DNA of 64,000 nucleotides from a virus (IMGVR_UViG_3300043449_002450:1-64000); one strand, 5' to 3'. Positions 1-14,849 are shown, counted from the first letter of the stretch. Notes: generated from the sequence alone by a model not told the origin. Made by a program: numbers and translations.

Positions 1-155
1 TCGCCCGGTTCGTGGTCCCCGACCACTTCGTCCAGGAGTATTGCCGAGACTACGACTCGAACCTCTACAGCGGCGGTCGAGGCTTCGGGGTCAGCGGGGA
101 TCGGGCATTCTTCCGGCTGGCTGAGAAAGGGCTGGGTGTGGCACAGTTCAGCTGA
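1..155 (+). CDS. 3' end of hypothetical protein (truncated by window edge)
   Basis: Frame 3 is open from the edge to TGA at 153-155 with GC3-rich codons (ARFVVPDHFVQEYCRDYDSNLY...). Confidence 0.6.
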   Translation, partial: ARFVVPDHFVQEYCRDYDSNLYSGGRGFGVSGDRAFFRLAEKGLGVAQFS

Positions 156-177
156 TCCCGGGCGTCCCCGCTCTGAG

Positions 178-202
178 GTGGTATACTAACCAGGCAAAGG
201 AG
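178..202 (+). promoter_or_regulatory. Extended -10 promoter plus RBS cassette (GTGGTATACTAACCAGGCAAAGGAG)
   Basis: TGnTATACT followed by AAGGAG; near-identical copy at 398-422. Confidence 0.7.
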
Positions 203-207
203 GACAG

Positions 208-375
208 ATGAAGACCATCACCGAGATCTACGAGAAGGTTGACGAGGCCACCTACGGGGCAGCCGAGATGCTCCTGATCATGTCGCTGGGCAGCGCCGTG
301 GCCATCACCCTCTACGCCGTCCTCGCGACGGCGACCCTGGGCTACATCCAGCTCTTCGCCCTGCTCACCGCGTAG
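208..375 (+). CDS. Small membrane protein (55 aa)
   Basis: AAGGAGG RBS; MKTITEIYEK...LFALLTA with a long hydrophobic stretch; too short for the supplied ORF track. Confidence 0.75.
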   Translation: MKTITEIYEKVDEATYGAAEMLLIMSLGSAVAITLYAVLATATLGYIQLFALLTA

Positions 376-397
376 ACGCGTGCACCCGATCCTGGTC

Positions 398-422
398 GTG
401 GTATACTAACAAGGCAAAGGAG
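398..422 (+). promoter_or_regulatory. Extended -10 promoter plus RBS cassette (GTGGTATACTAACAAGGCAAAGGAG)
   Basis: 24/25 identical to 178-202; GTGCAC lies 16 bp upstream of TATACT. Confidence 0.7.
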
Positions 423-427
423 ACACA

Positions 428-703
428 ATGCGTTCCAGCTTCCTCGATGACCGCAACTTCCCCCTCGTCTTCATGGGCATCCTGCTCGGCATGCCACTCA
501 CCGCTGTCCTGCTCACCGCGTGCACGAAGCCTACACCCGAGGAGCAGGCCCAGGCGAACATGACCTACGGTGACCAGATCCTGGAGGAGATCATCATCGT
601 CAACCCGCGGCCCAATGTGGAGTGCTACGTCCTCCGTGGGCACGGTGAGGCGGCCCCGAGGACCCTGTCCTGCGTCGTCTCGCCCGTGACGATGTCTCAC
701 TGA
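428..703 (+). CDS. Putative lipoprotein
   Basis: RBS, hydrophobic N-terminal segment and lipobox-like LTAC. Confidence 0.7.
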   Translation: MRSSFLDDRNFPLVFMGILLGMPLTAVLLTACTKPTPEEQAQANMTYGDQILEEIIIVNPRPNVECYVLRGHGEAAPRTLSCVVSPVTMSH

Positions 704-705
704 CC

Positions 706-714
706 TGGTATGAT
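706..714 (+). promoter_or_regulatory. Extended -10 promoter (TGGTATGAT)
   Basis: Same motif class as 178 and 398, directly upstream of the RBS of the gene at 734. Confidence 0.55.
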
Positions 715-733
715 ATAGAAGCGAGGAACAAAG

Positions 734-1009
734 ATGACCCACAAGATCACCGCTCTCTGCGCTCTCCTGATCGGCCTCACCGGCTGCACCGACAACCAGC
801 GGACCAAGGCCTTCGGCGGCAGCATGTCGGTCCAGATCCCCTGTGACCAGCAGGTGTTCGACGTCACCTGGAAGGGTGAGGACCTGTGGTACGCCACCCA
901 GCCCGCACCCAGCGGCTGGACCCCGCAGACCAAGCGCTTCATCGAGTACTCGTCCTACGGGATGATCCAGGGCGAGGTTACCCTGACCGAGAGCCGGTGT
1001 GCCAGCTGA
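734..1009 (+). CDS. Phage lipoprotein
   Basis: Signal peptide plus LTGC lipobox; the C-T-x-N-Q-R-x-K-x-F-G-G and VTWKGEDLWY pattern resembles a family of small phage lipoproteins. Confidence 0.8.
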   Translation: MTHKITALCALLIGLTGCTDNQRTKAFGGSMSVQIPCDQQVFDVTWKGEDLWYATQPAPSGWTPQTKRFIEYSSYGMIQGEVTLTESRCAS

Positions 1010-1253
1010 GAGACGGGTCAGGTCGGGTGACCTCGTGACAGACCGCTTTGGTCACGGTGTCGTCCTGGTGCAGAATCTGCACAGCCCACGATCCCGCAAC
1101 ACATGTCTGAGAGAGGGAGAGGTAGCGCTGGTTACCTGGGTAGGGATCGTCAAGGAGGTCCTCGGAGTGAATCGGGATGTCTGTGACGTCCTGTTCAAGG
1201 GCGAGGTGTGGCAGGCGAACACGATCAGCCTGCGGGTGGTGAGCGATGGTTGA
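999..1253 (+). CDS. Hypothetical small beta-barrel-like protein
   Basis: Overlap-coupled ORF; N-terminal xGDLV and C-terminal LRVVS. Confidence 0.65.
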   Translation: MPAERRVRSGDLVTDRFGHGVVLVQNLHSPRSRNTCLREGEVALVTWVGIVKEVLGVNRDVCDVLFKGEVWQANTISLRVVSDG

Positions 1254-1482
1254 GGTGGGACAGCTTCGGGTGTGGAAGAAGAGAGACGACGGCGGGCAGT
1301 TCTACAACATACCAGACGGCAAGTTGTGCTTCGTCACCGAGCGCTTCGACAACGGCGTGGACGAACGCGGACGGCAGCGTCCCAGCACCTTCACAGTGCT
1401 ACAGACCAGACCCGACGGCGGCATGGAGAACGTCTGGTTCTACAATCAAGAGCTAGAAGAGCACACGGTGCTGGTGGAGTGA
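1246..1482 (+). CDS. Hypothetical protein (VEVGQLRVW family)
   Basis: Coupled ORF; paralogous N-terminus with the gene at 1488. Confidence 0.7.
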   Translation: MVEVGQLRVWKKRDDGGQFYNIPDGKLCFVTERFDNGVDERGRQRPSTFTVLQTRPDGGMENVWFYNQELEEHTVLVE

Positions 1483-1487
1483 GGGAG

Positions 1488-1700
1488 ATGGCGCTGGTTG
1501 AAGCTGGGCAGCTCCGTCGGTGGCGTTACGCGCACCTGGACATGGACGGTGAGTTCTTCATCGTGCTGGAGCGTTACTCGATCCCGCTGCCTGGTGCTGA
1601 TTGGACTGACAACGGCTGGTGGATCCTCACCGACGGACGGCAACAGTGGGTGGCCGAGGCTGACATCGAGGACGACAGCGACGTGCTGGAGGATAGGTAG
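1488..1700 (+). CDS. Hypothetical protein (VEAGQLRRW family)
   Basis: ATG at 1488 after GAGGGAG; paralogue of 1246..1482. Confidence 0.7.
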   Translation: MALVEAGQLRRWRYAHLDMDGEFFIVLERYSIPLPGADWTDNGWWILTDGRQQWVAEADIEDDSDVLEDR

Positions 1701-1715
1701 AGAAGCGAGGCTGCC

Positions 1716-2153
1716 ATGGTGATCACATTCGACTTCGACGACACGCTTCTCTGGACAGCCGTGGACAGGGACGAGGACGGCAGCTACGTGGAGCACAACC
1801 CGATCGGCCAGAATCCCTACGTCTTCCCGCGTCTGCTGGAGGTGCTGGACAGCGGCGCCGAGGTGCGCGTCGTCACGTCTCGGCGCAGCAGGACACGTCC
1901 CGAGGTGCTGGCGTGGCTGGAGGAGTGGGGTGTCCTCGACCGTCTGGCTGGCGTGCACTTCACCGAGGGGGAGCTGAAGCATGACACGCTGGAGCGTCTG
2001 GGATCAAGGCAGCACTTCGACGACGACCCTGAGGAGCTGGCGCACCTGCCGGAGGGGTGCCGTGGTGTCCGCGCGCCGCTGCATCCCAGCTGGTCAGGTC
2101 AGCTGGGTGAGTCTGCCGTGCGCAGCTGGGTGAGGTCGCTTCTGCCTGCCTGA
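1716..2153 (+). CDS. HAD-superfamily phosphatase-like protein
   Basis: Motif I DFDDTL, motif II VVTSR, Lys of motif III and motif IV HFDDD. Confidence 0.75.
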   Translation: MVITFDFDDTLLWTAVDRDEDGSYVEHNPIGQNPYVFPRLLEVLDSGAEVRVVTSRRSRTRPEVLAWLEEWGVLDRLAGVHFTEGELKHDTLERLGSRQHFDDDPEELAHLPEGCRGVRAPLHPSWSGQLGESAVRSWVRSLLPA

Positions 2154-2157
2154 GCGC

Positions 2158-2204
2158 GTGCAGCTGCTGCACCCACGTGGTAAGATAAGCGCAGGAACAA
2201 GGAG
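2158..2204 (+). promoter_or_regulatory. Promoter plus RBS cassette (GTGCAG-N17-TAAGAT ... AAGGAG)
   Basis: TGGTAAGAT extended -10; same architecture as 380-422. Confidence 0.55.
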
Positions 2205-2209
2205 ACAAC

Positions 2210-2527
2210 ATGGCCTACGAGCTCACCTTCACCGTCCACCCGACCGGCGCGTCCCGGTGTGACATCTGTAACAGCCGCGTCGGCTACGGCTTCGAGACGA
2301 CCGCCCACGGCACCCCCATCTTCTTCCACTGCGGCACCTGCGTCTACACGACCTACAGCGAGGTCGAGGTGGACAGCGCGCTTCTGGCTCGGGAGCGGCT
2401 GCTCGCCCAGATCGAGCAGGAGCGTCGTGACGAGCTCGTCGAGGAGGAGGCGTATCGGGACGCCGTGATGTGCGCGTGGATCGACTTCGAGACGGTGTAC
2501 GGCGAAGACAAGCTGGGTGCGGCATGA
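2210..2527 (+). CDS. Small zinc-ribbon protein
   Basis: CDIC ... CGTC motifs; strong RBS. Confidence 0.7.
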   Translation: MAYELTFTVHPTGASRCDICNSRVGYGFETTAHGTPIFFHCGTCVYTTYSEVEVDSALLARERLLAQIEQERRDELVEEEAYRDAVMCAWIDFETVYGEDKLGAA

Positions 2528-2646
2528 AGCCGCTCATCCCGCTCGACGTCATCATGCGAGCCGTGATCGTCCCTCTCATCCCGTCCCTGATCCAGCAGCA
2601 TGACTGGGACGAGGATCGCCCCACCGTCGTCGTTCCTCGCTCCTAG
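2524..2646 (+). CDS. Small hypothetical protein (40 aa)
   Basis: ATGA overlap with the previous stop; MKPLIPLDVIMRAVIVPLIPS...; GC3-rich codons. Confidence 0.5.
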   Translation: MKPLIPLDVIMRAVIVPLIPSLIQQHDWDEDRPTVVVPRS

Positions 2647-2808
2647 TCTCGCTCCTAGGCGCAGCGTCGGGTGGCTGCTGGGATGCACCCCGTGCTGGCG
2701 GTTGCATCGTAAGACGGCGGGTGGTGGTGTAACGTGGCCCGAATAATCGAGTGACTGCGCGTGGTCTGGTTGCATCGGGTGAGATACGTAGATTCTAGGA
2801 GACAGACG

Positions 2809-3174
2809 ATGCGGGTCACAGGCAGACAGATCAGGCAGATCATCAGAGAGGAGCTGGGTCGCTCGCTTCGCGAGGGCTTCTGGGGGGACGACCCGCCTGA
2901 GGAGGGAAGCGGCTACCAGCATCTGTCGGCCGAGTCGCCGATCCTCGATCTCACAGACGGACCGGTGAGGATGCAGTGGGTCAACGAGATGCTCGAGCAC
3001 CTCAGAAGCTTCCCACCCTACATGCTTCCCATGCTGACCCAGGACTTCGAGAAGATGCTGGCGGGACGCCCTGTCGGCGTAGACGTCGCCAACATGTATC
3101 GCAGCAAGGGCGGCACCGTCTTCCTCTCCCGACGCTCGGTGGAAGCGCTTCTCAGCGCGCTGCAGGGAGGCTGA
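2809..3174 (+). CDS. Putative virion internal protein with N-terminal tag
   Basis: Starts MRVTGRQIRQIIREELGRSLREG; AGGAG RBS; ATACGTAG motif upstream. Confidence 0.75.
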   Translation: MRVTGRQIRQIIREELGRSLREGFWGDDPPEEGSGYQHLSAESPILDLTDGPVRMQWVNEMLEHLRSFPPYMLPMLTQDFEKMLAGRPVGVDVANMYRSKGGTVFLSRRSVEALLSALQGG

Positions 3175-3176
3175 TC

Positions 3177-3467
3177 GTGACACGACAGACGCTAAGGTCC
3201 CTCATCCACCGCATCATACGTGAGAGCTGGGACGTCCCGCCGTCTGGGATGGGCGCGAGGGTGAGACGCCTGGGACGGACCGGCGCGCTGGGTGAGAAGA
3301 TGGTGTCCCTGAACGTCACCCTTCGCGGTCTCTACATCGACGCCCTGGACGCTCACGAGAGCGGGGACAGAGAGACGTACGAGCAGATCATGGGACACAT
3401 CGGCGAGGTCGAGTGGCAGCTAGCAGACCTCCAGATGCAGCACGACGCGGTGCACGACGATACGTAG
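3177..3467 (+). CDS. Putative virion internal protein with N-terminal tag
   Basis: GTG start after GGAGG; (M)TRQTLRSLIHRIIRES. Confidence 0.7.
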   Translation: MTRQTLRSLIHRIIRESWDVPPSGMGARVRRLGRTGALGEKMVSLNVTLRGLYIDALDAHESGDRETYEQIMGHIGEVEWQLADLQMQHDAVHDDT

Positions 3468-3485
3468 ACGCTAGGAGTCTACGCA

Positions 3486-4925
3486 ATGAAGATCACCAAG
3501 AGAGAGCTTCGTCGCCTGCTGGGCGAGGCGGTGTTAGAGAAGGGATGGGAGTCGTGGGACGACTGGCAGAATCCCGGTGCCTACGCGCCCGGGACGAAGC
3601 CTGTCACCCGCGCCGCTGCCGAGGAGGAGGTCGAGTTCGCTCCCAGCGGTCGTGTTGTGGATCCCAGCCGTGAGGAGATGTGGGGCTTCGACGAGGAGCC
3701 CGACTACGATGAGATGTACGTGGGTCCCGTCCCGACGTCAGCGCTCGTCAAGCGCGTCGTGCCGAACGAGTACGACCTCGAGTTCGCCGAGGAGTTCGGC
3801 GGCGGCGAGGAAGACTATGAGGAATACGATGAAGAGACTCTCTACGAGGCGAAGGACGCAGCCAAGAAGACGCGTCCAGACGGCTACACGGATCTTCCCG
3901 CCTTCATGACGATCGGCAAGCAGTCGCCCACGAAGTATAGCGGCTACGGCGCGCAGCTGGGACACGGCGTCATAGACGATCCCGCAGTCGTGGATCCGCT
4001 GGGTGACGACATCGACGCGGGCGCGCTGCGTCAGGTGAATCGTCTCATGCAGCGCGGCGAGGACAAGAAGAAGGACAAGAAGAAGCTCAAGGAGAGTGTG
4101 ATGAGCGTGACACGGAACGACATACGGCGCCTGGTGAACGAGGCGCTAGACGAGATGAGCATGATGGGTGTCCCGGGTGGGATGCGTCGGCAGCGACCCG
4201 GCATGTGCCTCTACGTCACCTACGGCGGCGGCGTCTTCTACTTCGTCGCGCCCTGTCCCCGTCCGGGAGCCAGTGAGGAGGAAGCTGCAGAAGCTGAGGA
4301 TGCTGCGGTAGAGATGGGAAGAGAAGTCACCTCTGAGCTCGACCCAGAGGGTCGGGGCATGGCCAACGCGTTTGATCTCTACTCGTGGCTGCAGGACCAC
4401 GACGAGATCACCCACGTCCACGACTTCGAGTCTGTGGGCGGCACAGTGCCGAAGAAGACGTACATGATCCAGGTTCGAGAAGTCGGCCAGGAGGAGGGTC
4501 TCTTCCCGCCCGATGACGTGGTCAACGAGGGAGCGTTCCCCGAGGAGCTGGAGGGCGTCTACGGTGCAGCGCCACCCGAGGACTACGAGGAAGACATGGG
4601 ATACGGGGACGAGGACGAATACAGCTACGGTGACGATCCCGATGAGTTCCTCGACCTCTCAGGCGGCGAGATCATGCGACGCATGTATGATCGCGGTGAC
4701 TTCGATCAGCCATACGAAGACGACATCCCCCCAGGCGCGGCAGACGTCGCCCTTCGGATGGGACGCGGCTACAGGACAGACGAGGGTGACTTCGACCCAG
4801 ATGTCGGCTACATCGACGACCCGAAGTCTGCCCGCCACGGTAAGCCCATGAAGCGTCGGAGCGCAGATGACGAGCCCCTCAACGAGGCACGCTGGGCGAA
4901 GCTGGCCGGCATCCTGAAGGGCTGA
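3486..4925 (+). CDS. Acidic putative virion internal/core protein with two tags and C-terminal RWAKLAGILKG
   Basis: MKITKRELRRLLGEA at the start and MSVTRNDIRRLVNEA internally; highly D/E-rich. Confidence 0.8.
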   Translation: MKITKRELRRLLGEAVLEKGWESWDDWQNPGAYAPGTKPVTRAAAEEEVEFAPSGRVVDPSREEMWGFDEEPDYDEMYVGPVPTSALVKRVVPNEYDLEFAEEFGGGEEDYEEYDEETLYEAKDAAKKTRPDGYTDLPAFMTIGKQSPTKYSGYGAQLGHGVIDDPAVVDPLGDDIDAGALRQVNRLMQRGEDKKKDKKKLKESVMSVTRNDIRRLVNEALDEMSMMGVPGGMRRQRPGMCLYVTYGGGVFYFVAPCPRPGASEEEAAEAEDAAVEMGREVTSELDPEGRGMANAFDLYSWLQDHDEITHVHDFESVGGTVPKKTYMIQVREVGQEEGLFPPDDVVNEGAFPEELEGVYGAAPPEDYEEDMGYGDEDEYSYGDDPDEFLDLSGGEIMRRMYDRGDFDQPYEDDIPPGAADVALRMGRGYRTDEGDFDPDVGYIDDPKSARHGKPMKRRSADDEPLNEARWAKLAGILKG

Positions 4926-4957
4926 CGGCCGCGCCCGCTGCAGGGCTATGCAGACAA

Positions 4958-4989
4958 GGGGCCACCAGGCAGGGATGCTGGGTGGCCCC
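4958..4989 (+). terminator. GC-rich hairpin after 3486..4925 (possible terminator)
   Basis: GGGGCCACC ... GGTGGCCCC 9-bp stem; no U-tract. Confidence 0.4.
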
Positions 4990-5025
4990 GAGCCCTATCT
5001 GCGGCTTGCTGCCTGGGGAGCAGGG

Positions 5026-5160
5026 TAGGGGCGCCCCTAGCCCCCTATATGGTAGGGCGCCCGGGGCGCCCGCTCCGGGGGCACGCCCCGGGGCCTACAA
5101 GCCCACCGGCGCCCCCTGGAGGCCTGGAGGGGGCCTAGGTCTCCGCGCACTTCCCGGGAA
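5026..5160. repeat. Cluster of GC-rich palindromes
   Basis: Perfect 14-mer TAGGGGCGCCCCTA at 5026-5039; GGCGCC four times; CCCCGGGG; TTCCCGGGAA at 5151-5160. Confidence 0.7.
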
Positions 5161-5273
5161 CTTTCGATCACTTTACCTACCTCCCCGCATTCACTGCAGC
5201 GACCCCGTCCCTCCCGATGACCCCGAAGTGCTCCCCATCACCCGAGAGCTGTGGACATCCTTTTCCCGAGAGC

Positions 5274-5350
5274 AAAATCTGCACCGAGAGATCTCCGTAA
5301 TGACCCATTTTCCCAAAAAACTTCCCGGGAATTTTTGACGACTTTTAACC
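5274..5350 (+). repeat. Intergenic repeat copy A (AAAATCTGCACC ... AAAAACTTCCCGGGAATTTTTGACGACTTTTAACC)
   Basis: Aligns with 7752-7829 with the same spacing between the two boxes. Confidence 0.75.
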
Positions 5351-5388
5351 TTTCTGTTACAGCATATTTAGTGTCTAGAGGCGTTGAC

Positions 5389-5907
5389 ATGAAGATCACA
5401 CAACATCATCTTCGACAGTTGATTCGAGAGATGCTGGACACCTCTGTCTCCGATGAGCTAGCTACTCTCGTGCAGGGCGACCAGCAGCTTAGGAAAGAGT
5501 GGGAGAATGCTGTCAATGCGGAGGGCGGCTTCAAAGTGCTGCGGCACGGGACACCGAGGTGGGATGCAGTCCGATCGGAGTTCATGCGTGCACACGGCAC
5601 AACAGATGACGACATGTTCGGCGACAAGTCCCGTGCCGCGCAGATCCTCTCCCTTCCTGATCGCCTGGACTGGGACGGCATGACCGAGGATGACTGGCAC
5701 AACATCGCCCTGCTCACACAGCATATGGACGGAGCACCCGCCTTCCAGAAGCGGATGCTCACCATCTTCCGGAAGTGGCGCGGTGAAGACAGCAGCCAGT
5801 ATCAATATCTCCACGACCGGATCTCTTGCCGAGAGACGGGGACGCAGCTGTTCGGGACCCAAGACGCGGGCACGAATTACTCCAAGTGCAAGTGGGTTCG
5901 AGATTAG
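5389..5907 (+). CDS. Tagged protein with DUF6624-like C-terminal domain
   Basis: MKITQHHLRQLIREML tag; LLTQHMD..PAFQ and YLHDRI...QLFGTQ resemble DUF6624 motifs. Confidence 0.7.
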   Translation: MKITQHHLRQLIREMLDTSVSDELATLVQGDQQLRKEWENAVNAEGGFKVLRHGTPRWDAVRSEFMRAHGTTDDDMFGDKSRAAQILSLPDRLDWDGMTEDDWHNIALLTQHMDGAPAFQKRMLTIFRKWRGEDSSQYQYLHDRISCRETGTQLFGTQDAGTNYSKCKWVRD

Positions 5908-5909
5908 GC

Positions 5910-5947
5910 AAAAACTTCCCGGGAAAAATTTGTGACTTTTGACTTTT
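5910..5947 (+). repeat. Intergenic repeat copy B (AAAAACTTCCCGGGAAAAATTTGTGACTTTTGACTTTT)
   Basis: Second box of the repeat, directly after the stop codon at 5907. Confidence 0.75.
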
Positions 5948-5985
5948 ATGGGCGAAATAAAATAAATAATTTCGAGAGAGTTTTC

Positions 5986-6801
5986 ATGTCCAATCATTAC
6001 CTTGTAGCTTGCGCCGTTTTTAAGAATGAGACATGGGGCCTGCGCGAGTGGATCGAGCATCACATGCACCACGGAGTTGATCACATCTATCTTGTCAATG
6101 ATGACAGCGATGATGATTACATGTCGATATTGAGTCCCTATATCGATCGGGGTCATGTTACTCTCATTCAGAATGAGATCAAGGAGAGATATACAGGCAG
6201 GCAAGTTGACATCAATAACAGATATTTCTTGCCTCTGGCACGGACGGCAAAGTGGATCACCAATATCGACATCGATGAGTATCTTTATAGCCCTAAAGAG
6301 CAAGACATCAAGCGAATTCTTAAAAATTACGAGGATTACGCAGTCTTGAATGTGAATTGGACGTGGATGACGTCAAATGGTCATGTTAGACAGCCTTCTG
6401 GAATTGTTAGATCATTCACTAAGCGGTCTGATTATAAGACGCTGGTCAATTTTAATGTCGCGGGTCGGAGTCGTGAGACTGTGTGGTTGGGTGGATACAA
6501 GTGCGTAGCGAACACAAGTTTTGACATTAGATCTTTCAATATTCACAATGTGGCGACGACATCGGGTGATCAAAAAAACGCGTCTGTTGAATCGAACCCA
6601 GCTGATCCCGATCTTCTGGTCAATCATTATCAGCTTCAATCCCGTGAGTATTGGGAGAAAGTGAAGATGCGTCGCGGTGATGTGAATTTCTGGTTCAAGG
6701 GTGATGATCGAACATTTGAGGAATTTGACACGATGGATTTGGGTGATATCGATGATTTTAGGCTAAGAGATCAAAATACTTTTTTTGAAGCAATGCTTTG
6801 A
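5986..6801 (+). CDS. Glycosyltransferase (GT92/GT2-like, GT-A fold)
   Basis: ACAVFKNE..LREWIEHH..GVDHIYL, DIDEY (DxD) and NHYQLQSRE motifs. Confidence 0.8.
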   Translation: MSNHYLVACAVFKNETWGLREWIEHHMHHGVDHIYLVNDDSDDDYMSILSPYIDRGHVTLIQNEIKERYTGRQVDINNRYFLPLARTAKWITNIDIDEYLYSPKEQDIKRILKNYEDYAVLNVNWTWMTSNGHVRQPSGIVRSFTKRSDYKTLVNFNVAGRSRETVWLGGYKCVANTSFDIRSFNIHNVATTSGDQKNASVESNPADPDLLVNHYQLQSREYWEKVKMRRGDVNFWFKGDDRTFEEFDTMDLGDIDDFRLRDQNTFFEAML

Positions 6802-6845
6802 TTTTAGCCTTCACTGGGCAGGCCAATGACCTGTGGAGTTCCGTG

Positions 6846-6870
6846 TCTGCGCCGTAAAATTTTTCTCTAG
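6846..6870 (+). repeat. Partial intergenic repeat copy (TCTGCGCCGTAAAATTTTTCTCTAG)
   Basis: Matches 7756-7780 (TCTGCACCCCAAAATTTTTCTCTCG). Confidence 0.55.
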
Positions 6871-6928
6871 TTGGGCACGTGCGTCACATGATCGGCTGTG
6901 GTATATTTAGTTGCATGGAGAGACGAGA

Positions 6929-7744
6929 ATGAGTGTGACCAGGAGCCGTATTAGGGAGATCATCAAGGAGGAAGTTGCACGGGGCCTCCAGGAGGCGATG
7001 TCTCCTGAGGAGAAGTTGATGCGTCGGCGGGAGCAGGCTCGGGCATCTCGAGCCCGTGCCGAGGATCAGCGCAGGGAGGCTGAATATGCTCGTCGTTCGC
7101 GTCATGACGTCGAGCAGCTCGGATACATCTCCAAGGGTCCTAGCCTACAACCAGGCGGGCCTCTCCCTGGCTTGATGTCCTATGATCCCACGATGTTTAG
7201 CAAGGCATATATCGATCGCCGTTTCGCTGCAGAAATGGGCATCTCCACGCCTGAGGATGTGATTGCTGCTGTTGAAGGGGGTCGGGCAAAGGTGTGGTCC
7301 GCAGGAATGATTGGGGGCGCGCAGCCTCCCTCCATGACGGTTGTGCCTGCTGATGCAAGGGCTGGCTACAATGAGACCACAGGTGCCAAGGGCTATCCCT
7401 ATGTTTACACGCGAAATGCGAAAGATGAGGCAGGTCGTCACACGCATGATCTGGAAGTGGTGATCCAGCGTGGAATTGGCTATGGTGGTTACGGTCCTAC
7501 CACCTTTAGCAATGATTCCCGTATGGGTCTGACAGCTTCGCGCCTCGCGGGTCGTATTAGCGAGGTTGTTCCTATTGACCTCTTGGGCGGTGGCAAGGGC
7601 GAGGTTGTTGATGTTGTGTCCGGAGAGAGTGGTGAGCCTATGATGGGTGCAGAGATGCCAATGGGTGATATGAATGGCGACGAGCCACTCACCGAGAGCA
7701 CCACACTTACGCGATGGAATTTGCTCGCAGGTATCAAGCGGTAG
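6929..7744 (+). CDS. Putative virion internal protein with N- and C-terminal tags
   Basis: MSVTRSRIREIIKEEVARGLQEA ... EPLTESTTLTRWNLLAGIKR. Confidence 0.8.
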   Translation: MSVTRSRIREIIKEEVARGLQEAMSPEEKLMRRREQARASRARAEDQRREAEYARRSRHDVEQLGYISKGPSLQPGGPLPGLMSYDPTMFSKAYIDRRFAAEMGISTPEDVIAAVEGGRAKVWSAGMIGGAQPPSMTVVPADARAGYNETTGAKGYPYVYTRNAKDEAGRHTHDLEVVIQRGIGYGGYGPTTFSNDSRMGLTASRLAGRISEVVPIDLLGGGKGEVVDVVSGESGEPMMGAEMPMGDMNGDEPLTESTTLTRWNLLAGIKR

Positions 7745-7751
7745 AAGCTTA

Positions 7752-7829
7752 AAAATCTGCACCCCAAAATTTTTCTCTCGGGTCGTTTTGATGAAAAACT
7801 TCTCGGGAGAATTTTTTGACTTTTTAACC
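7752..7829 (+). repeat. Intergenic repeat copy C (AAAATCTGCACC ... AAAAACTTCTCGGGAGAATTTTTTGACTTTTTAACC)
   Basis: Aligns with 5274-5350. Confidence 0.75.
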
Positions 7830-8001
7830 CTTGCCGTCACACGCTGTATGGATTTTTTGTGCGAAGTGCCCTCACCATCTTCATCATTGATACTCTTGTC
7901 AAGGCGTCATTTATCATCACTTTCTACCTCCTGTTCTCCTTCATTCGGATCTCATTGCTGCCTGAGATCTATAGATATTTCCAGTAGATTCAGGAGCATT
8001 T

Positions 8002-8442
8002 GTGTCAGTCAAGCTACTTCGTGAGACCATCCAGACAATCTTGACAGAGGCCAGCTCATTAACAGACTTTGAGATCTCTGTCGAGCCTCCGAACACCATC
8101 AATGTTCGCAACAAGGTGACGGGTGGGAGCGGATCTTCTAGAAAGATTCAAGTCGAAGCAGAGATTGATGCGATATTGGGAACAACGACGGCGTTGCTCA
8201 AGGTCGACGAGCTTAGGATCAAGGCATTTAATCCTACAGCACCTGATGGCCAGCCTGTCCTGTCTGTCTATGTCAAGGTGAGCAAGATCGGCGTCTCTAA
8301 AGAAAGTGACGCTGATATCATAAACAAGTCTGCGTTGTTGGGCCTAGCTAACGCAGTCATCAACGGAACATCTTATACTGCGCCGTGGTCAGCAAAAAAG
8401 AACGGCATGCGTGTTCGTCTTATTGTCAACGGCAAGTCATGA
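8002..8442 (+). CDS. Hypothetical protein with N-terminal tag
   Basis: GTG start, AGGAG RBS; MSVKLLRETIQTILTEA. Confidence 0.75.
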   Translation: MSVKLLRETIQTILTEASSLTDFEISVEPPNTINVRNKVTGGSGSSRKIQVEAEIDAILGTTTALLKVDELRIKAFNPTAPDGQPVLSVYVKVSKIGVSKESDADIINKSALLGLANAVINGTSYTAPWSAKKNGMRVRLIVNGKS

Positions 8443-9545
8443 ACGCGATAAGAGGCTACATCAGGCAGGTCCTTGCTGAGGATTTGCGAGGATTTCTCAA
8501 CAAGACATGGGACATCTCTTACAACGTCGGCGGACAAAATGCCTCCTCGCTAGATCGTCCTGAAAATGCTGATATCAAGGATAAAGCTCGCGCGGTCAAG
8601 AGCGCCTGGTGGGAGGAGGCAGACCAGACTTTCTTTGCAAGTCTGACAAAAGTGCACTGGCTTTCCGATTCTGGGACATATAATCTGAGGCGAACAAATG
8701 AGGTTCTGAATAATGTCCTGTCGCTGGCGGCACAGGGATCTGAGCTTCCCACGACAGGTTACACTCCAGGCACTGTCCAAAATTTTGCCTGGGGTCAATG
8801 GGGCATTATTGTGGGAGGAGAAAAGTGTGTCGCCACCTTTGCCGCCAACTCCATGGAGGACGTTGTCTCAGGATATGTGACACGCGATGCCCTGGCTTTG
8901 TCTTTCTTGAAGCGGGGCAGAAATCCTCTTCCAAGGCGGCCTCTCAAATTCGACCCACAGCAAGGTGCGGGAGCCATGAGCAAGGATGAGGCAGTTGAGC
9001 TGCTCCTCCAGAATCCCACTTACCTGCTAGATGCTGACTCTTGGCGCGAGCCAACTCGTGGACGCACAAATGAGATCATTGTCAAGCATTGGAAGATTTT
9101 AGGCATCATCGTTGCTAATGAGGCGCAGATCACAGGGCTGATAGATGCAGCAAAAGGTGTGACTAAGGGAATATACAATCCTGCAACACGATCTTACATG
9201 CGTGTCAATGCTAGAGACATTCCTGATTGGAAGAATGATGCGATGAACTTGATCCAGACAATACTGGATTCTGGGTTGAGGGTCTTTGCTGCACCAGATA
9301 CAGAGAAGCCCGTTGATTTTAGAGTGTTGGTTCGAACTGCCCTAGGCGTTGAGGCTGCTGATACACAGGATGTCGATGTGGCTACAAGATTTGCGCCACC
9401 GGAGCCACCCAAGATGGTGTTACCTCCCGTCAAAGAGCCGCCTAGGCCCACAAGGTCTGCGCCGGAGCCTGTGCCTGCAGAGCAACCTGAGCAAAACTTG
9501 AAGCCTGAAGCGGGATTCTCCTGGCTTTTTGATCCTGTCAAGTAG
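8439..9545 (+). CDS. Hypothetical protein with N-terminal tag and Pro-rich tail
   Basis: ATGA overlap; MNAIRGYIRQVLAED. Confidence 0.75.
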   Translation: MNAIRGYIRQVLAEDLRGFLNKTWDISYNVGGQNASSLDRPENADIKDKARAVKSAWWEEADQTFFASLTKVHWLSDSGTYNLRRTNEVLNNVLSLAAQGSELPTTGYTPGTVQNFAWGQWGIIVGGEKCVATFAANSMEDVVSGYVTRDALALSFLKRGRNPLPRRPLKFDPQQGAGAMSKDEAVELLLQNPTYLLDADSWREPTRGRTNEIIVKHWKILGIIVANEAQITGLIDAAKGVTKGIYNPATRSYMRVNARDIPDWKNDAMNLIQTILDSGLRVFAAPDTEKPVDFRVLVRTALGVEAADTQDVDVATRFAPPEPPKMVLPPVKEPPRPTRSAPEPVPAEQPEQNLKPEAGFSWLFDPVK

Positions 9546-9557
9546 ATAATTAGCATC

Positions 9558-9980
9558 ATGAAACCTAAAAACGCTCTTCGAATGTTGATAAGAAGTGAGA
9601 TAGCTGATATCTTGGCAGAAGCAAAGAAGAAATCTGTATTGCCACCTTTGCCTCCAATAGCATCGACGCCAGAATTTGATACGGAGATGCGTGACATATC
9701 AACCATGCATGATCTTGGTTACGATATCGAGAGCATGCTAGGAACCGATATATTTGGATCGGGTGAGTATCCAGAAGGTGAGCAACTTTCTAGGAAGTCA
9801 AGGTATAGTGATCCAGAGGATCTCTATCGCAAGCCTTCTGCACAATGGATGGCACAGCATTTAGCAGCCAGCTCTGATCCCAGGAAGCGACAGGTAGGAA
9901 TGAATCTTCTTAAGAAAATGGAAGATATGATAGGTCATCAAAGATACACGAGACTTGGGTCTAGTGACGATGACTATTAA
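9558..9980 (+). CDS. Hypothetical protein with N-terminal tag
   Basis: MKPKNALRMLIRSEIADILAEA; ATAATTAG motif upstream. Confidence 0.75.
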   Translation: MKPKNALRMLIRSEIADILAEAKKKSVLPPLPPIASTPEFDTEMRDISTMHDLGYDIESMLGTDIFGSGEYPEGEQLSRKSRYSDPEDLYRKPSAQWMAQHLAASSDPRKRQVGMNLLKKMEDMIGHQRYTRLGSSDDDY

Positions 9981-10354
9981 TAAGAGATGAACAGCTTGAC
10001 TATTTGGCCGGCGACAGCGTTGGCCTGGTCCTCAAAGAATCCACCAACATCTTTGATCTTAGTCTTGCCAAAAAAGTCATGCTTGCCCTGCTGCATGTGA
10101 ACCATCTCATGTGCAATTGATCTGCACACATCAAAAACATGGCGTGTATCAGTGTATATCACGACATGATTATTTGATGGATTGAAATAAGCTGTTGTTT
10201 TTATTCCATGTTTTTCTCTATCACCCGTTAGAATAACACAGTAGTCTTGATCTTGCAAGTGAAGAAAGTCTTCTGCAAAGACACAGAACTGTGATATCTT
10301 TGAGATAGAATCTCTATCTTGACCGCATGTTTTTTCGGCAATTAGCTTCTTCAT
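9977..10354 (-). CDS. Zincin-like metallopeptidase-motif protein
   Basis: RSIAHEMVH (HExxH) with downstream EDQANA; short MKKLIAE leader. Confidence 0.7.
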   Translation of the reverse strand: MKKLIAEKTCGQDRDSISKISQFCVFAEDFLHLQDQDYCVILTGDREKHGIKTTAYFNPSNNHVVIYTDTRHVFDVCRSIAHEMVHMQQGKHDFFGKTKIKDVGGFFEDQANAVAGQIVKLFISY

Positions 10355-10419: not shown

Positions 10420-11610
10420 TTGTCAATCTTCAGAGAGCATAAGACTTCTGCAGACAGGTCTGCATCGGACCGGTCTCGTCACAAGAAGAAGATCGAAAAA
10501 GCGATCCGTGAAGGGATCACCGACATCATTGCCGAGGAATCGATCATTGGCCAAGATGGTAAGAAGCGCATCAAAATTCCTGTTAGAGGAATCAAAGAGT
10601 GGCAGTTCATCTATGGAGACAATGAGGGACAGAAGAAAGTTGGTTCTGCTCCAGGGCACGATCTAGAGGAAGGACAGGTAGTCAAGAAAGGCAAGGAGAA
10701 GACAAAGGGAAGCGGTGGAAAAGCAGGCAAGGACAAGGGCGAAGAGACATATGAGGTCGAGATATCACTCGATGAGTTGGCTGAGTATCTCTTTGATTCA
10801 CTTAACCTACCTGATCTAGACAAGAAGAAGTTTAAGAACATGCTTAGTTCCAAGCCAAAGAGGCACGGGACTAGGACAAATGGTATCCGCCCTAGGCTTG
10901 ATAAGAAGCTATCTGCAATTGAACGCATAAAGAGAAAAGCGGCAGCTAGAAGCGCAGGAAATATCGAGATCAATCCAGACAATGGTGAGGAGGTATTTCC
11001 TTTCCATGAGAATGATCTGCGATACCATTTTATCAAGAATAAGCCTAAAGAGGCCACAAACGCTGTTGTCTTCTTCATGATGGATGTCTCTGGCTCCATG
11101 ACCAAAGATATAAAATACGTCGCAAGATCGTTCTTTTTCATACTGTATCAATTCCTTCGATACAAATATGAGAACCTTGAGATTGTCTTCATATCGCACA
11201 CAACAGAAGCATCTGAAGTTGATGAGGATTCTTTCTTTAAGAGAATAGAATCGGGTGGGACATATGTCAGTTCTGCTCCAAATCTTGCTCTTGAGATCGC
11301 CAACGAAAGGTATCACCCATCATCTTGGAACGTCTACGCGTTCCATTGCACTGATGGTGATAACTGGGGCGAAGACAACCTAAAGGCTCAAAAAGCTTTT
11401 AGGGAGCTTGCAGACATCTGCCAGATGGTTGGGTATTTTGAGATATTGCTTGGAACATCAAAGGGAGAATGGAATGAGGATGTCGATAAGACGCTCTGGG
11501 GTCACCTTCTAAAGATGAAACATGATAACTTTAAGATGAACATCCTCAAGAGTGTAACAGACATCTGGCCGACGTTCAATAAGCTTTTTGGAGGATTACC
11601 TGATGTCTGA
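10420..11610 (+). CDS. yeaH: YeaH/YhbH (DUF444) family protein with VWA MIDAS motif
   Basis: DRSRHKKKI, IAEESII, KIPVRGIKE, MDVSGSM, ESGGTYVSSA, WNVYAFHCTDGDNW. Confidence 0.92.
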   Translation: MSIFREHKTSADRSASDRSRHKKKIEKAIREGITDIIAEESIIGQDGKKRIKIPVRGIKEWQFIYGDNEGQKKVGSAPGHDLEEGQVVKKGKEKTKGSGGKAGKDKGEETYEVEISLDELAEYLFDSLNLPDLDKKKFKNMLSSKPKRHGTRTNGIRPRLDKKLSAIERIKRKAAARSAGNIEINPDNGEEVFPFHENDLRYHFIKNKPKEATNAVVFFMMDVSGSMTKDIKYVARSFFFILYQFLRYKYENLEIVFISHTTEASEVDEDSFFKRIESGGTYVSSAPNLALEIANERYHPSSWNVYAFHCTDGDNWGEDNLKAQKAFRELADICQMVGYFEILLGTSKGEWNEDVDKTLWGHLLKMKHDNFKMNILKSVTDIWPTFNKLFGGLPDV

Positions 11611-12907
11611 GTGGTCTATGGAAGATCTGAATGCTTGGGACCAGAAGATCTGTAAGATCGCAAAAGAGTGCGGATTAGACTGGTATGAGATCGCGTATGA
11701 GACATGTGATTACTTTGAGATGATCGGTAACATGTCATACCACGGTATGCCCAGCCATTTTTCTCACTGGTCATACGGAAAGTCTTTCGAGCGGACTCAC
11801 TTCATGTATAATGCGGGTCAAGAAGGCCTGCCTTATGAGCTGATTATTAACTCGAATCCGTCTATTGCCTATTTGATGGTTGAGAACCCACTATACTTGC
11901 AAGTTCTTATCATGGCGCATTGCGTCGGTCATTCTGACTTCTTTAAGAATAATAGGACATTTAAAGATACTGACGCTGATATGATCACTTCAAAATTTAG
12001 AAGTGCCAGAGCTCGAATACAGAGCTATATTGAAGATCCTTCAATTGGAATCGACAAAGTTGAAAAACTGATTGATGCCTGCCACAGCATTCAATACCAG
12101 ATAGATCGAAGAGGGAGATTTAGAAGATCTGAGAGGGAACTGGTAGATTCTTTCATGCAGGATGAGAAGAATACAAAAAAGAATAAAGATCTGGAGTCTA
12201 TTAAGTTTCCAATAGAACCTGAGTATGATGTTTTACTATTTCTAGTAGAGAATTGTAAAAGACTAGCTCCCTGGCAGAAAGATGTAATAGAGATTATTAG
12301 ATCAGAATCGCTCTATTTCATGCCACAGATTAGAACGAAGATAATGAATGAGGGATGGGCCAGCTTCTGGCACTACAGGATACTCCAAAAGCTAGATCTA
12401 CCTGATGAGATGCATATTCCATTTTTAAGAATTCATAATCTAGTTCTTAGACCCTGGGGAGGATCAATTAATCCTTATCATCTTGGGTTTGAAATCTTTA
12501 AGAAGATAGAGGAAGAGAGAGGTCTTGAGGAATGTTTCATAGCAAGAGAGGTTCACAATGATGAATCTTTTATCATGCAATATCTTGATAGAGAGATCTG
12601 TGAAAGACTTAACCTGTTTACTTACTCCCTAAAATCAAAGAGTGGGGACTGGACGATAGACGATCTATCTGACGAAGATGGCTGGAAGGAAGTAAGAGGA
12701 GCTCTCTTAGCAAATGTTGCTGGGAATGGAATACCGACCATATACGTCGATGAGGTCCAGAAGGATACTTTAGTATTAAGACATGAACATGATGGTCGTG
12801 ATCTTGAGCTTGACTACGCTGAGAATTGTGTGAGAAACATCAAAGAAATTTGGGGCGGACCTGTTAAGCTCTTTACTAAGATAGAGGATGAAGATTTTGA
12901 AATCTAA
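11603..12907 (+). CDS. spoVR: SpoVR/YcgB family protein
   Basis: GMPSHFSHWSYGK, YELIINSNPSIAYL, AHCVGHSDFFKNN, TKIMNEGWASFWH, NPYHLG. Confidence 0.93.
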   Translation: MSEWSMEDLNAWDQKICKIAKECGLDWYEIAYETCDYFEMIGNMSYHGMPSHFSHWSYGKSFERTHFMYNAGQEGLPYELIINSNPSIAYLMVENPLYLQVLIMAHCVGHSDFFKNNRTFKDTDADMITSKFRSARARIQSYIEDPSIGIDKVEKLIDACHSIQYQIDRRGRFRRSERELVDSFMQDEKNTKKNKDLESIKFPIEPEYDVLLFLVENCKRLAPWQKDVIEIIRSESLYFMPQIRTKIMNEGWASFWHYRILQKLDLPDEMHIPFLRIHNLVLRPWGGSINPYHLGFEIFKKIEEERGLEECFIAREVHNDESFIMQYLDREICERLNLFTYSLKSKSGDWTIDDLSDEDGWKEVRGALLANVAGNGIPTIYVDEVQKDTLVLRHEHDGRDLELDYAENCVRNIKEIWGGPVKLFTKIEDEDFEI

Positions 12908-12923
12908 CAATAGGAGTCAACCG

Positions 12924-14849
12924 ATGGATTTTCTTGAACTTATTAAGAAGCAGCGCGAAGAAGGGCAGAAGGAATCCTGGCGTGGGACCCTAATTGATTA
13001 TCTCGCTCTTGTTAAAAATGATCCAACTATCCCAAAACTTGCGGCAAGTCGACTCTATGATTCTATAGCAAACTATGGTGTCAGCTCAATGTCTGATGCT
13101 GACCCAAGGTGTAGGAAGCTGTTTGATGGGGATAAGCTAAAGATCTATGACTATTTTAAGGACGATTTTTATGGTCATGAAAGAGTCATTGCCAAGATCA
13201 TGAGATTTCTCAGAGCAGCATCACTAAAGGGCGAAGAGAGTCGTCAGGTTCTTTTACTGATGGGTCCTGTCGGGTCAGGTAAATCAGCGCTGGCTGACGC
13301 TCTAAAGAAGGCGCTTGAGAAGGGCGCAGAACCTGTCTATCATCTTGAGGGCTGCCCAGTTCGAGAGGAGCCACTTCATCTTCTTCCAAGATCACTCAGA
13401 GATGACTTCTCTAAGATGTTAGGTGCACATATTGAGGGAGATCTGTGCCCAGTGTGTCGATACAGGCTCATGAATGAGTTCAATGGTGAGTATGAGAAAT
13501 TCCCAATTGTTAGGACGTCATTCTCTCAGCGTGCTCGGCGCGGTATTGCCGTGGTTCCTCCCATGGATGCCAACTCTCAGGACGTCTCGGCACTCATCGG
13601 CTCAGAGGACATCTCCAAGCTGGACAAATACAGCGAGTCTGACCCACGTGTTCTCAATCTTGACGGTGCTTTCAACGTGGGCAACCGAGGAACTGTAGAG
13701 TTTGTTGAGATCTTCAAGAACGAGATCGAGTTTCTCCACACAATCATCACAGCAACCCAGGAAAAGAATGTTCCAACGCCTGGTAAGAATGGAATGCTCT
13801 ACTTCGATGGTGTCATCATCTCACACTGCAATGAATCAGAGTGGAATCGCTTCAAGTCTGAGCACACTAACGAGGCCATTCTCGACCGTGTCGTGAAGAT
13901 TGAGGTCCCATATGTCCTGGAGCTCACACAGGAGATGAAGATCTATGAGAAGATGATTCGTAAATCAGACTTCAAGGCGCACCTTGCACCTCACACAATC
14001 AAGGTTGCTGCCATGTTCTCAGTGATGAGCCGTCTAAAGCCTTCACAGAAATGTGACCCGCTCACCAAGATGAAGATCTATGACGGGCAGGAAGTTGTTG
14101 AGAAGGGCCGGACCAAGAAGGTTGATATCAAGGACCTACGTGAGGAGGTCCGTCACGAGGGCATGGATGGAATCTCTACCCGATTCATCACCAAGGCTAT
14201 TGACTCGGCGCTAACTGACTCTGACAAGAGCTTTATCACACCAATGAGAGTTGTTGATGCACTTATCAAGCAGGTGAAGGAGCAGGTTGTAGACGAGGAG
14301 AAGAAGAAGGTCTACCTTGAGCTTCTCCAAAAGGTCATTCGAGAGGAATATCTTAAGATTCTCGAGGGTGAGATTGCCAAGGCATTCGTCACCGCCTATG
14401 AGGAGCAGGCTCAGAGCCTCTTCGACAACTATCTTGATAATGCTGAGGCATTTACGACCAAGCAAAAGATGAAGGATCGTGTCACAAATGAAGAGCGTGA
14501 TCCAGATGAGAAGTTCCTGCGTGCCATCGAAGAGCAGATTGGTATTAGCGGATCTGCTAAGGATGGCTTTAGAGCAGATGTGACTTCATACATGTTCGCA
14601 AAGGTCCGTCGCGGCCAGAAGGTTGACTACAAGGCATACGAGCCACTCAAGGAGGCAATTGAGAGCTATCTGATTGCATCCGTCAAGGATCTTGCGAGGA
14701 TTGTAACAAAGTCCAAGAGCAGGGACAACGAGCAGCAAAAGAAATATTCTGACATGGTTATGACACTTGTCAATGATTATGGATACACAGCAGATTCTGC
14801 AGAAGAGATCATCACATTTGCTGCCAATAATCTTTGGAGAGATTCTTGA
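12924..14849 (+). CDS. prkA: PrkA/YeaG family AAA+ ATPase / serine protein kinase
   Basis: Walker A LMGPVGSGKS, CPVREEPLHL, GNRGTVEFVEIFK, NEAILDR, EGMDGISTRF. Confidence 0.93.
   Translation: MDFLELIKKQREEGQKESWRGTLIDYLALVKNDPTIPKLAASRLYDSIANYGVSSMSDADPRCRKLFDGDKLKIYDYFKDDFYGHERVIAKIMRFLRAASLKGEESRQVLLLMGPVGSGKSALADALKKALEKGAEPVYHLEGCPVREEPLHLLPRSLRDDFSKMLGAHIEGDLCPVCRYRLMNEFNGEYEKFPIVRTSFSQRARRGIAVVPPMDANSQDVSALIGSEDISKLDKYSESDPRVLNLDGAFNVGNRGTVEFVEIFKNEIEFLHTIITATQEKNVPTPGKNGMLYFDGVIISHCNESEWNRFKSEHTNEAILDRVVKIEVPYVLELTQEMKIYEKMIRKSDFKAHLAPHTIKVAAMFSVMSRLKPSQKCDPLTKMKIYDGQEVVEKGRTKKVDIKDLREEVRHEGMDGISTRFITKAIDSALTDSDKSFITPMRVVDALIKQVKEQVVDEEKKKVYLELLQKVIREEYLKILEGEIAKAFVTAYEEQAQSLFDNYLDNAEAFTTKQKMKDRVTNEERDPDEKFLRAIEEQIGISGSAKDGFRADVTSYMFAKVRRGQKVDYKAYEPLKEAIESYLIASVKDLARIVTKSKSRDNEQQKKYSDMVMTLVNDYGYTADSAEEIITFAANNLWRDS

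Follow-up and report, generated by a model that had tools for sequence, protein, structure and literature searches.

In phage T4, the first 10 residues of the internal protein IPIII suffice for its packaging and are removed by the prohead protease gp21, and among T-even phages the internal proteins are diverse, with only this capsid-targeting sequence (CTS) conserved (PMC3012670; PMC9026906). T4 Alt, a packaged ADP-ribosyltransferase, is cut at both ends (PMC9026906). Here we describe a comparable element in a fragment of an uncultured T4-type phage. The window analysed was the first 64 kb of a 176,181-bp IMG/VR virus record (IMGVR_UViG_3300043449_002450; the contig), rated ~52% complete. The element is a short N-terminal leader, hereafter called the tag, found on otherwise unrelated proteins encoded at positions 2809-10354 and elsewhere in the contig. 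By analogy with T4, we consider it rather likely that this shared helix acts as a T4-like propeptide for capsid targeting, in an elongated form that far more proteins carry. The tag would thus be an analogue of the CTS in function; we do not claim homology between the two.

The likeness to the T4 CTS, as borne by IPI, IPII, IPIII and Alt, consists in a short N-terminal leader on unrelated proteins that ends in hydrophobic-x-Glu, in a phage that encodes a gp21-family protease. As in T4, the scaffold and core proteins have related N-termini, and the sets of internal proteins vary between related phages (PMC3012670, PMC9026906). Alt, with its propeptides at both ends, also resembles by fold one of the cargo families described below. 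The leader of the present phage, however, has 15-22 residues, is a basic amphipathic helix and often contains two tandem sites, whereas the T4 CTS (M-K-T-Y-Q-E-F-I-A-E) has 10 residues and shows no sequence likeness to it. T4 has four carriers, against at least 23 in this half of a genome and 18-21 in the records of two relatives. The bodies here are mostly acidic and reach 809 aa, and some of them have a second, C-terminal address apparently copied from the scaffold protein. The system departs from that of T4 in how many proteins are tagged, in the length and character of the leader, and in bodies that are acidic and large; the scaffold-derived C-terminal address is a further novelty.

A similar comparison can be made with the large phages phiKZ, 201phi2-1 and SPN3US, which have many internal head proteins and a T4-related protease cutting after x-x-Glu, and for which a targeting role of the propeptides has been suggested (PMC10052503). 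In SPN3US the motif is A-x-E, and most propeptides are 111-254 residues long and dissimilar (PMC10052503), whereas in our contig one short common leader is reused.

The tag has the form M-x-[IV]-T-x-x-x-[LI]-R-x-[LI]-[LI]-x-E and makes up one amphipathic leader. Its core, [LIVM]-[RKQ]-x-[LIV]-[LIV]-x-E, occurred within the first 22 residues of 15 of the 188 genes, where 0.59 were expected from the rate in protein bodies (10 matches in 50,743 positions; the gene calls were crude). When a profile built from the tags was scanned over all six frames of the contig, a start codon coincided with nearly every good match. Nine reading frames of the window and at least 23 of the contig carried the tag, with ~7,200 residues in total. 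The top matches included the frames at 2809, 3486, 4101, 5389, 6929 and 8439 (14-20 bits) and 8002 (9 bits); those at 3177 (6 bits) and 9558 had looser variants that could still be aligned. Arg was present in at least 90% of the aligned rows, with hydrophobic flanks at helical spacing and then Glu, and the best conserved positions were this Glu and the two hydrophobic residues before it. The tags were amphipathic (mean helical moment of 0.43, compared to 0.25 in control segments) and mildly basic. Identical tag residues shared a codon in only 33% of pairs, and six Arg codons were used at the conserved Arg. The tag is conserved at the protein level; conservation at the DNA or RNA level was ruled out, because the codons differ too much.

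All ten N-termini listed in the original prediction were present at the positions given, and were described there as mostly basic amphipathic helices ending in Glu. We do not count MKKLIAE at 10354 on the minus strand as a member, since it was missed by the profile and [LI]-x-E that near a start is common by chance. The tag was indeed found in the predicted interval, 2809-10354, but it is not confined there, as the contig has at least 14 more tagged frames outside this interval (Table 1), with the weakest at 135910, 140045, 153229 and 155655. A thioredoxin at contig 169691 matched a loose regular expression and was treated as a false positive. The bodies behind the tags had been described as unrelated, and this was borne out: they showed no BLASTP similarity to one another at E < 0.01 and no solid family in Pfam or PHROGs. 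The only traces, both weak, were of an alpha/beta hydrolase in the protein at contig 166497 and of LRV repeats in that at 170013.

The association of the tag with the phage head is apparent from a T4-type head module located outside the window, at contig 78-90 kb. The module encodes, in this order, the portal, a 288-aa open reading frame (ORF), a gp21-family prohead protease (gene at contig 83252-83860; Peptidase_S77 match at 83345-83764, 90.4 bits, E 9.7e-27), a 171-aa and a 96-aa ORF, two 177-aa ORFs, a 466-aa scaffold-like protein, and a Gp23-family capsid protein of 642 aa (contig 87268-89196). Both ORFs directly after the protease gene are tagged, and dozens of relatives with 62-82% identity in the capsid protein retain the tag on them. 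In the capsid-protein alignment, the T4 gp23 cut L-T-E↓A matched Q-L-L-R-E↓F in this phage and Q-[VIL]-L-[RK]-E↓[SA] in the relatives. The tag end, [LI]-[LI]-[RK]-E, is the same string as this maturation site predicted by homology. Moreover, [LIV]-x-E reached ~5 per 100 aa in the scaffold, core proteins and protease, 3-4 times its density in the proteome (1.46), as would be expected if these were cleaved by a T4-type protease; in T4, gp21 also cuts gp22 after Glu (PMC9026906). Together with the C-terminal motif of the scaffold, the tagged head ORFs, the match to the capsid cut site and the [LIV]-x-E density tie the tag to prohead assembly. The capsid-targeting interpretation put forward in the original prediction is partly supported by these four points and by the presence of the protease itself; it does not extend to the minus-strand protein at 10354.

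Scaffolding proteins of phage P22 (gp8) and of herpesviruses have C-terminal coat-binding peptides; in herpesviruses the tail is the part that binds the major capsid protein, and the maturation protease removes it. The scaffold protein of the present phage also has a short conserved peptide at its extreme C-terminus, preceded by a protease-type site and putatively binding the capsid protein. W-x-x-L-A-G-I is the invariant C-terminus of the scaffold. The motif ends all scaffold proteins of the clade that we have seen, plus those of the phages immuto and Mel-JY01, and 88 of its 95 occurrences lie within 14 residues of the stop. In the six-frame translation of the contig, R-W-x-x-L-A-G had only three copies, each 8-11 residues before a stop. 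Two of them belong to the 3486 and 6929 proteins, the pair for which a shared C-terminal motif had been predicted, and the third to the scaffold protein; in the two window proteins the motif is preceded by L-x-E. At the C-terminus of the 171-aa core protein, which is itself tagged, stands the related motif K-W-A-x-L-A-F, and a few other non-scaffold proteins also bear the C-terminal motif. In this respect our phage differs from P22 and herpesviruses, for which we know of no description of the scaffold-tail peptide on non-scaffold proteins.

The second module of the 3486 protein had 22 homologues, all of which end in hydrophobic-x-Glu followed by [ASG]-R-W-A-K-L-A-G-I-L-K-G. Some of these homologues stand alone and have the tag at residue 1-2, whereas others follow a further tagged module in a fusion. 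When the capsid protein (25-row alignment) was modelled in complex with the C-terminal 50 residues of the 6929 protein, the score was 0.01, with a mark of 0.32, a result that we take as evidence neither of binding nor of its absence. We also observed two non-terminal sequences similar to the scaffold tail: I-C-E-L-A-G-I-G near the N-terminus of a 172-aa protein at contig 142439-142957 (L086:8439-8954), and N-W-R-R-L-A-G-I on the minus strand of a relative (L092, ~2733).

Encapsulins are another HK97-fold shell filled by means of short peptides. Their cargo-loading peptides are C-terminal and stay on the cargo, binding directly to the shell, and encapsulins have neither protease nor scaffold nor DNA. 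A short terminal peptide directing diverse cargo enzymes into the shell would be common to both systems, whereas the tag described here is N-terminal and putatively removed, and protease and scaffold genes are present.

The original prediction also pointed to a late-type motif upstream of the tagged genes. The motif, ATAnnTA[GA], is real: of its 60 plus-strand sites, 27 are found no more than 40 nt ahead of a gene start, compared to 2.4 expected. It precedes 11 tagged genes as well as the tail sheath and tail tube genes, and this sharing suggests co-regulation of the tagged genes with structural genes. The motif nevertheless differs from the T4 late consensus, TATAAATA, and the term "late-type" is reasonable but unproven. 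In a second spacing class, ATAnnTAG is followed after exactly 4 nt by ATG, with no ribosome-binding site (window 9546-9560; contig 100827, 170001, 172905 and 174571); this class may mark some late genes with leaderless transcripts.

The tag recurs in related phages. At least 597 IMG/VR contigs had a related capsid protein, with 62-82% identity among the best 80, and the nearest cultured phages by this protein were Flavobacterium phage immuto, Microcystis phage Mel-JY01 and Rhodothermus phage RM378 (40-44% identity). Two relatives have records of ~255 kb each, rated ~75% complete, so the clade is probably jumbo. Scanning of the tag profile over the genome and its relatives, as had been proposed, gave 18 and 21 matches in these two records, clustered in islands, in addition to those of our contig. 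There were 7 weaker matches in a 484-kb uncultured phage and one weak match each in immuto and Mel-JY01. The consensus in the relatives is approximately M-K-I-T-[KR]-R-Q-L-R-R-I-I-[KR]-E. A megablast search of the region against the phage collection returned nothing useful, and neither did tblastn with one cargo protein and a 25-residue tag, the latter being a short query of low sensitivity.

The 57 tagged proteins of three phages formed 45 body clusters. The island upstream of yeaH-spoVR-prkA is syntenic in the relatives, and tagged genes are found there too. In the island of the closest relative (L099), the 9558 gene and part of the 8002 gene are kept, whereas the bodies of others are replaced, with the tag and intergenic DNA retained. 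The number of body clusters, the swapping of bodies at kept tags, and the occurrence of the 3486-type module in free-standing and fused forms indicate that the tag is portable. An internal tag copy was also seen in another relative (G002), ~170 residues into a 556-aa frame (L091:7880-9560) with a Y-H-A-T region at its start.

The cargo for which a fold could be proposed is encoded at contig 168159-169646. Its family has more than 330 homologues, with several copies in one relative, and the leader is kept in 95 of the 120 homologues listed. Glu12 is at least 90% conserved, and Glu17, located just before the folded domain, is invariant. In the model of the 495-aa protein (pLDDT 85), the leader is a detached low-confidence helix and residues 214-495 form leucine-rich repeats (Z 19). 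Because a fold search with the full-length model returned only leucine-rich-repeat proteins, the N-terminal domain (residues 18-195) was folded alone (pLDDT 82). For this domain, Foldseek ranked the solved structure of an anti-CRISPR protein, 6kyf, first (E 2.7e-4), with cholix toxin, PARP10 and tankyrase next. In VIA, most of the 50 best rows were titled ADP-ribosyltransferase or PARP domain, with Z of only 5-6.7. A Y-H-G-[ST] motif with a candidate NAD-binding His, in which Y27 and G29 are invariant, fits an ADP-ribosyltransferase; no catalytic Glu could be assigned from the family alignment. The models thus predict an ADP-ribosyltransferase-like fold with leucine-rich repeats, although fold alone is no proof of activity.

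Several observations weigh against a capsid-targeting role. The cut site was deduced from an alignment to T4. A scan of T4 with the tag profile gave no match, and no tag carrier was found among the cultured phages of the collection. No homology of the tagged core protein family to T4 gp67 or gp68 emerged from a profile comparison (probability below 1%). T4 internal proteins are small and basic, unlike the bodies here, which are mostly acidic and in some cases very large (495-809 aa), and ~7,200 tagged residues in half a genome represent a large packing load. Furthermore, SPN3US, with only nine known substrates and 42 uncut head proteins, packages most of its head proteins uncleaved (PMC10052503), so a tag is no general requirement for packaging.

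Other roles of the leader must also be considered. Amphipathic and mildly basic helices such as this one often bind membranes or acidic partners, and the leader could be an uncleaved functional helix that binds membranes, oligomerises, or addresses the protein to another compartment or partner, its likeness to a protease site being coincidental. We find this unlikely, given that the Glu and the two hydrophobic residues before it are the best conserved positions and match the predicted cut site of the capsid protein, that the same leader is found on proteins encoded between the protease and scaffold genes, and that some carriers also have the scaffold C-terminal peptide. The leader of enzyme-recognised precursors, as in ribosomally synthesised and post-translationally modified peptides, is likewise shared by unrelated bodies, which is the hallmark that would make the tag a recognition sequence of a modifying enzyme. 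This appears very improbable: the bodies are large folded proteins, the 176 kb contain no radical-SAM gene (PF04055) in a record representing ~52% of the genome, and such a model offers nothing that corresponds to the ties with the head module and with the protease site.

The swapping of bodies in the closest relative, where the tags and adjacent intergenic DNA stay similar, raises the question of whether the peptide itself matters. The promoter, start region and first 15 codons might move together as a recombination site or expression module, in which case the leader would be mainly a by-product of mobile cassettes, with little function. The promoter-like motif just upstream of 11 tagged genes would fit such a scheme, and shuffling of regulatory (promoter-terminator) cassettes is described for T4-type genomes (PMC2839356, PMC4122927). 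On the other hand, the tag is conserved at the level of amino acids and not of codons, is kept down to 62% capsid-protein identity, occurs in internal copies, and is present in many genes that lack the upstream motif, all of which make this explanation quite improbable as the main one. As the way in which the tag spreads, cassette exchange can be compatible with capsid targeting.

If the tag is indeed a capsid-targeting propeptide, the tagged proteins would be made late in infection alongside the structural proteins. The amphipathic leader would carry the cargo into the scaffolding core of the prohead, beside the two conserved core proteins with the same leader. Cleavage by the gp21-family protease behind the Glu of [LI]-[LI]-x-E, in many cases at two sites in tandem, would then free the mature protein inside the head. 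For a subset of the cargo, the scaffold C-terminal peptide W-x-x-L-A-G-I behind L-x-E would be a removable address in addition to the leader. When the next cell is infected, the cargo would exit the head together with the DNA. Here we infer packaging, core binding, cleavage, retention in the virion, and ejection or injection from analogy with T4.

The features of the locus are listed in Table 1.

Table 1. Tagged genes and associated features, numbered from the first nucleotide of the contig.
Feature	Position	Strand	Details
Promoter-like motif ATAnnTAG	2784..2791	+	further copies at 3460, 5364, 6903 and 9546 ahead of tagged genes
Tagged ORF, 121 aa	2809..3174	+	18.6 bits; AGGAG site 7 nt upstream; ATACGTAG motif at 2784
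Tagged ORF, 96 aa	3177..3467	+	6.3 bits; GTG start 6 nt past GGAGG; looser tag ending I-I-R-E-S
Two-module tagged ORF, 479 aa, very acidic	3486..4925	+	N-terminal tag, internal tag at 4101, C-terminal scaffold-type peptide
Internal tag copy	4101..4148	+	18.9 bits; own AAGGAG site; inside the 3486-4925 frame
C-terminal peptide of the 3486 protein	4872..4922	+	E-P-L-N-E, then A-R-W-A-K-L-A-G-I-L-K-G (scaffold-type motif behind L-x-E)
Tagged ORF, 172 aa	5389..5907	+	20.3 bits, top profile match; ATATTTAG motif at 5364
Tagged ORF, 271 aa, both tags	6929..7744	+	17.5 bits; ATATTTAG motif at 6903
C-terminal peptide of the 6929 protein	7682..7741	+	E-P-L-T-E ... R-W-N-L-L-A-G-I-K-R
Tagged ORF, 146 aa, GTG start	8002..8442	+	9.1 bits; tag with 2-residue insertion, end I-L-T-E-A
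Tagged ORF, 368 aa	8439..9545	+	16.4 bits; start overlaps the stop of the preceding gene
Tagged ORF, 140 aa	9558..9980	+	looser tag, likely site I-L-A-E-A; 72% identical in L099
Tagged frames elsewhere in the contig	74688, 83862, 84410, 135910, 140045, 141131, 153229, 155655		
Tagged frames elsewhere in the contig (continued)	165347, 166497, 168159, 170013, 172917, 174583, 175665		

Ribosome sites of the AGGAG/GGAGG type were located 6-8 nt upstream of the 2809, 3177 (GTG), 3486 and 6929 starts. The 9558 gene has no ribosome site, and its ATAATTAG motif lies only 4 nt before the ATG. The leader of the 2809 protein contains two tandem [LI]-x-E sites, I-I-R-E and then S-L-R-E. The internal tag at 4101 is either part of a fused cassette or an internal start. 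Searches of IMG/VR, by a method that reaches close relatives only, found no close relatives of the 3486 and 6929 proteins. The 8439 gene had only 5 homologues and is missing from the island of the closest relative; in the ESM Atlas all scores for its protein were below 0.9, with faint DarT/PARP leads.

The G+C content swings from 38% to 63% along the contig and is 58-64% at window 1-5907. The G+C content at third codon positions is 0.72-0.82 in the first four cargo genes, compared to a genome median of 0.50 and 0.73 in the capsid gene, and could reflect either codon bias in late genes with high expression or a foreign origin. An untagged GT92/GT2-type glycosyltransferase gene (Pfam E 1e-15; 43% G+C) lies within the cargo island at window 5986-6801 and is missing from the island of the closest relative. 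Downstream of the 3486 gene, window 4926-5360 is ~80% conserved with the same relative and contains no convincing gene (a 118-aa GTG frame spans 4982-5338). The minus-strand gene at window 9977-10354 encodes a 125-aa protein with an H-E-x-x-H motif, no family and no tag, which is 71% and 56% identical in the relatives L099 and L100, respectively. Directly downstream of the cargo island is an intact yeaH (DUF444), spoVR and prkA triad (window 10420-14849), and a PIN-PhoH fusion protein is encoded at window 20707-22017 (Pfam E 1e-52 for PhoH and 3e-32 for PIN).

A broader proposal, which we put forward tentatively and as somewhat doubtful, is that this widespread clade uses its capsid to deliver proteins from a large, exchangeable repertoire, perhaps 30-40 of them per genome. 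These would be admitted by two removable signals, the core-type N-terminal leader and, for a subset, a copy of the scaffold tail, and new cargo, including ADP-ribosyltransferase and leucine-rich-repeat enzymes, would be acquired through cassette exchange at the tags. If the tags load the capsid, the set of proteins that are packaged, and probably injected, could be recognised by a simple sequence rule in a group of phages that is uncultured but abundant, for which the IMG/VR capsid-gene relatives number at least 597. Dozens of unannotated genes per genome would then become candidates for host-takeover or anti-defence proteins. The combination, in cargo, of a copied scaffold C-terminal tail with a core-type N-terminus suggests a targeting rule that would bear on how T4-type cores recruit their contents. 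Attempts to load foreign proteins into phage heads, as made with the T4 CTS, might also employ the longer, well-defined pair of tags.

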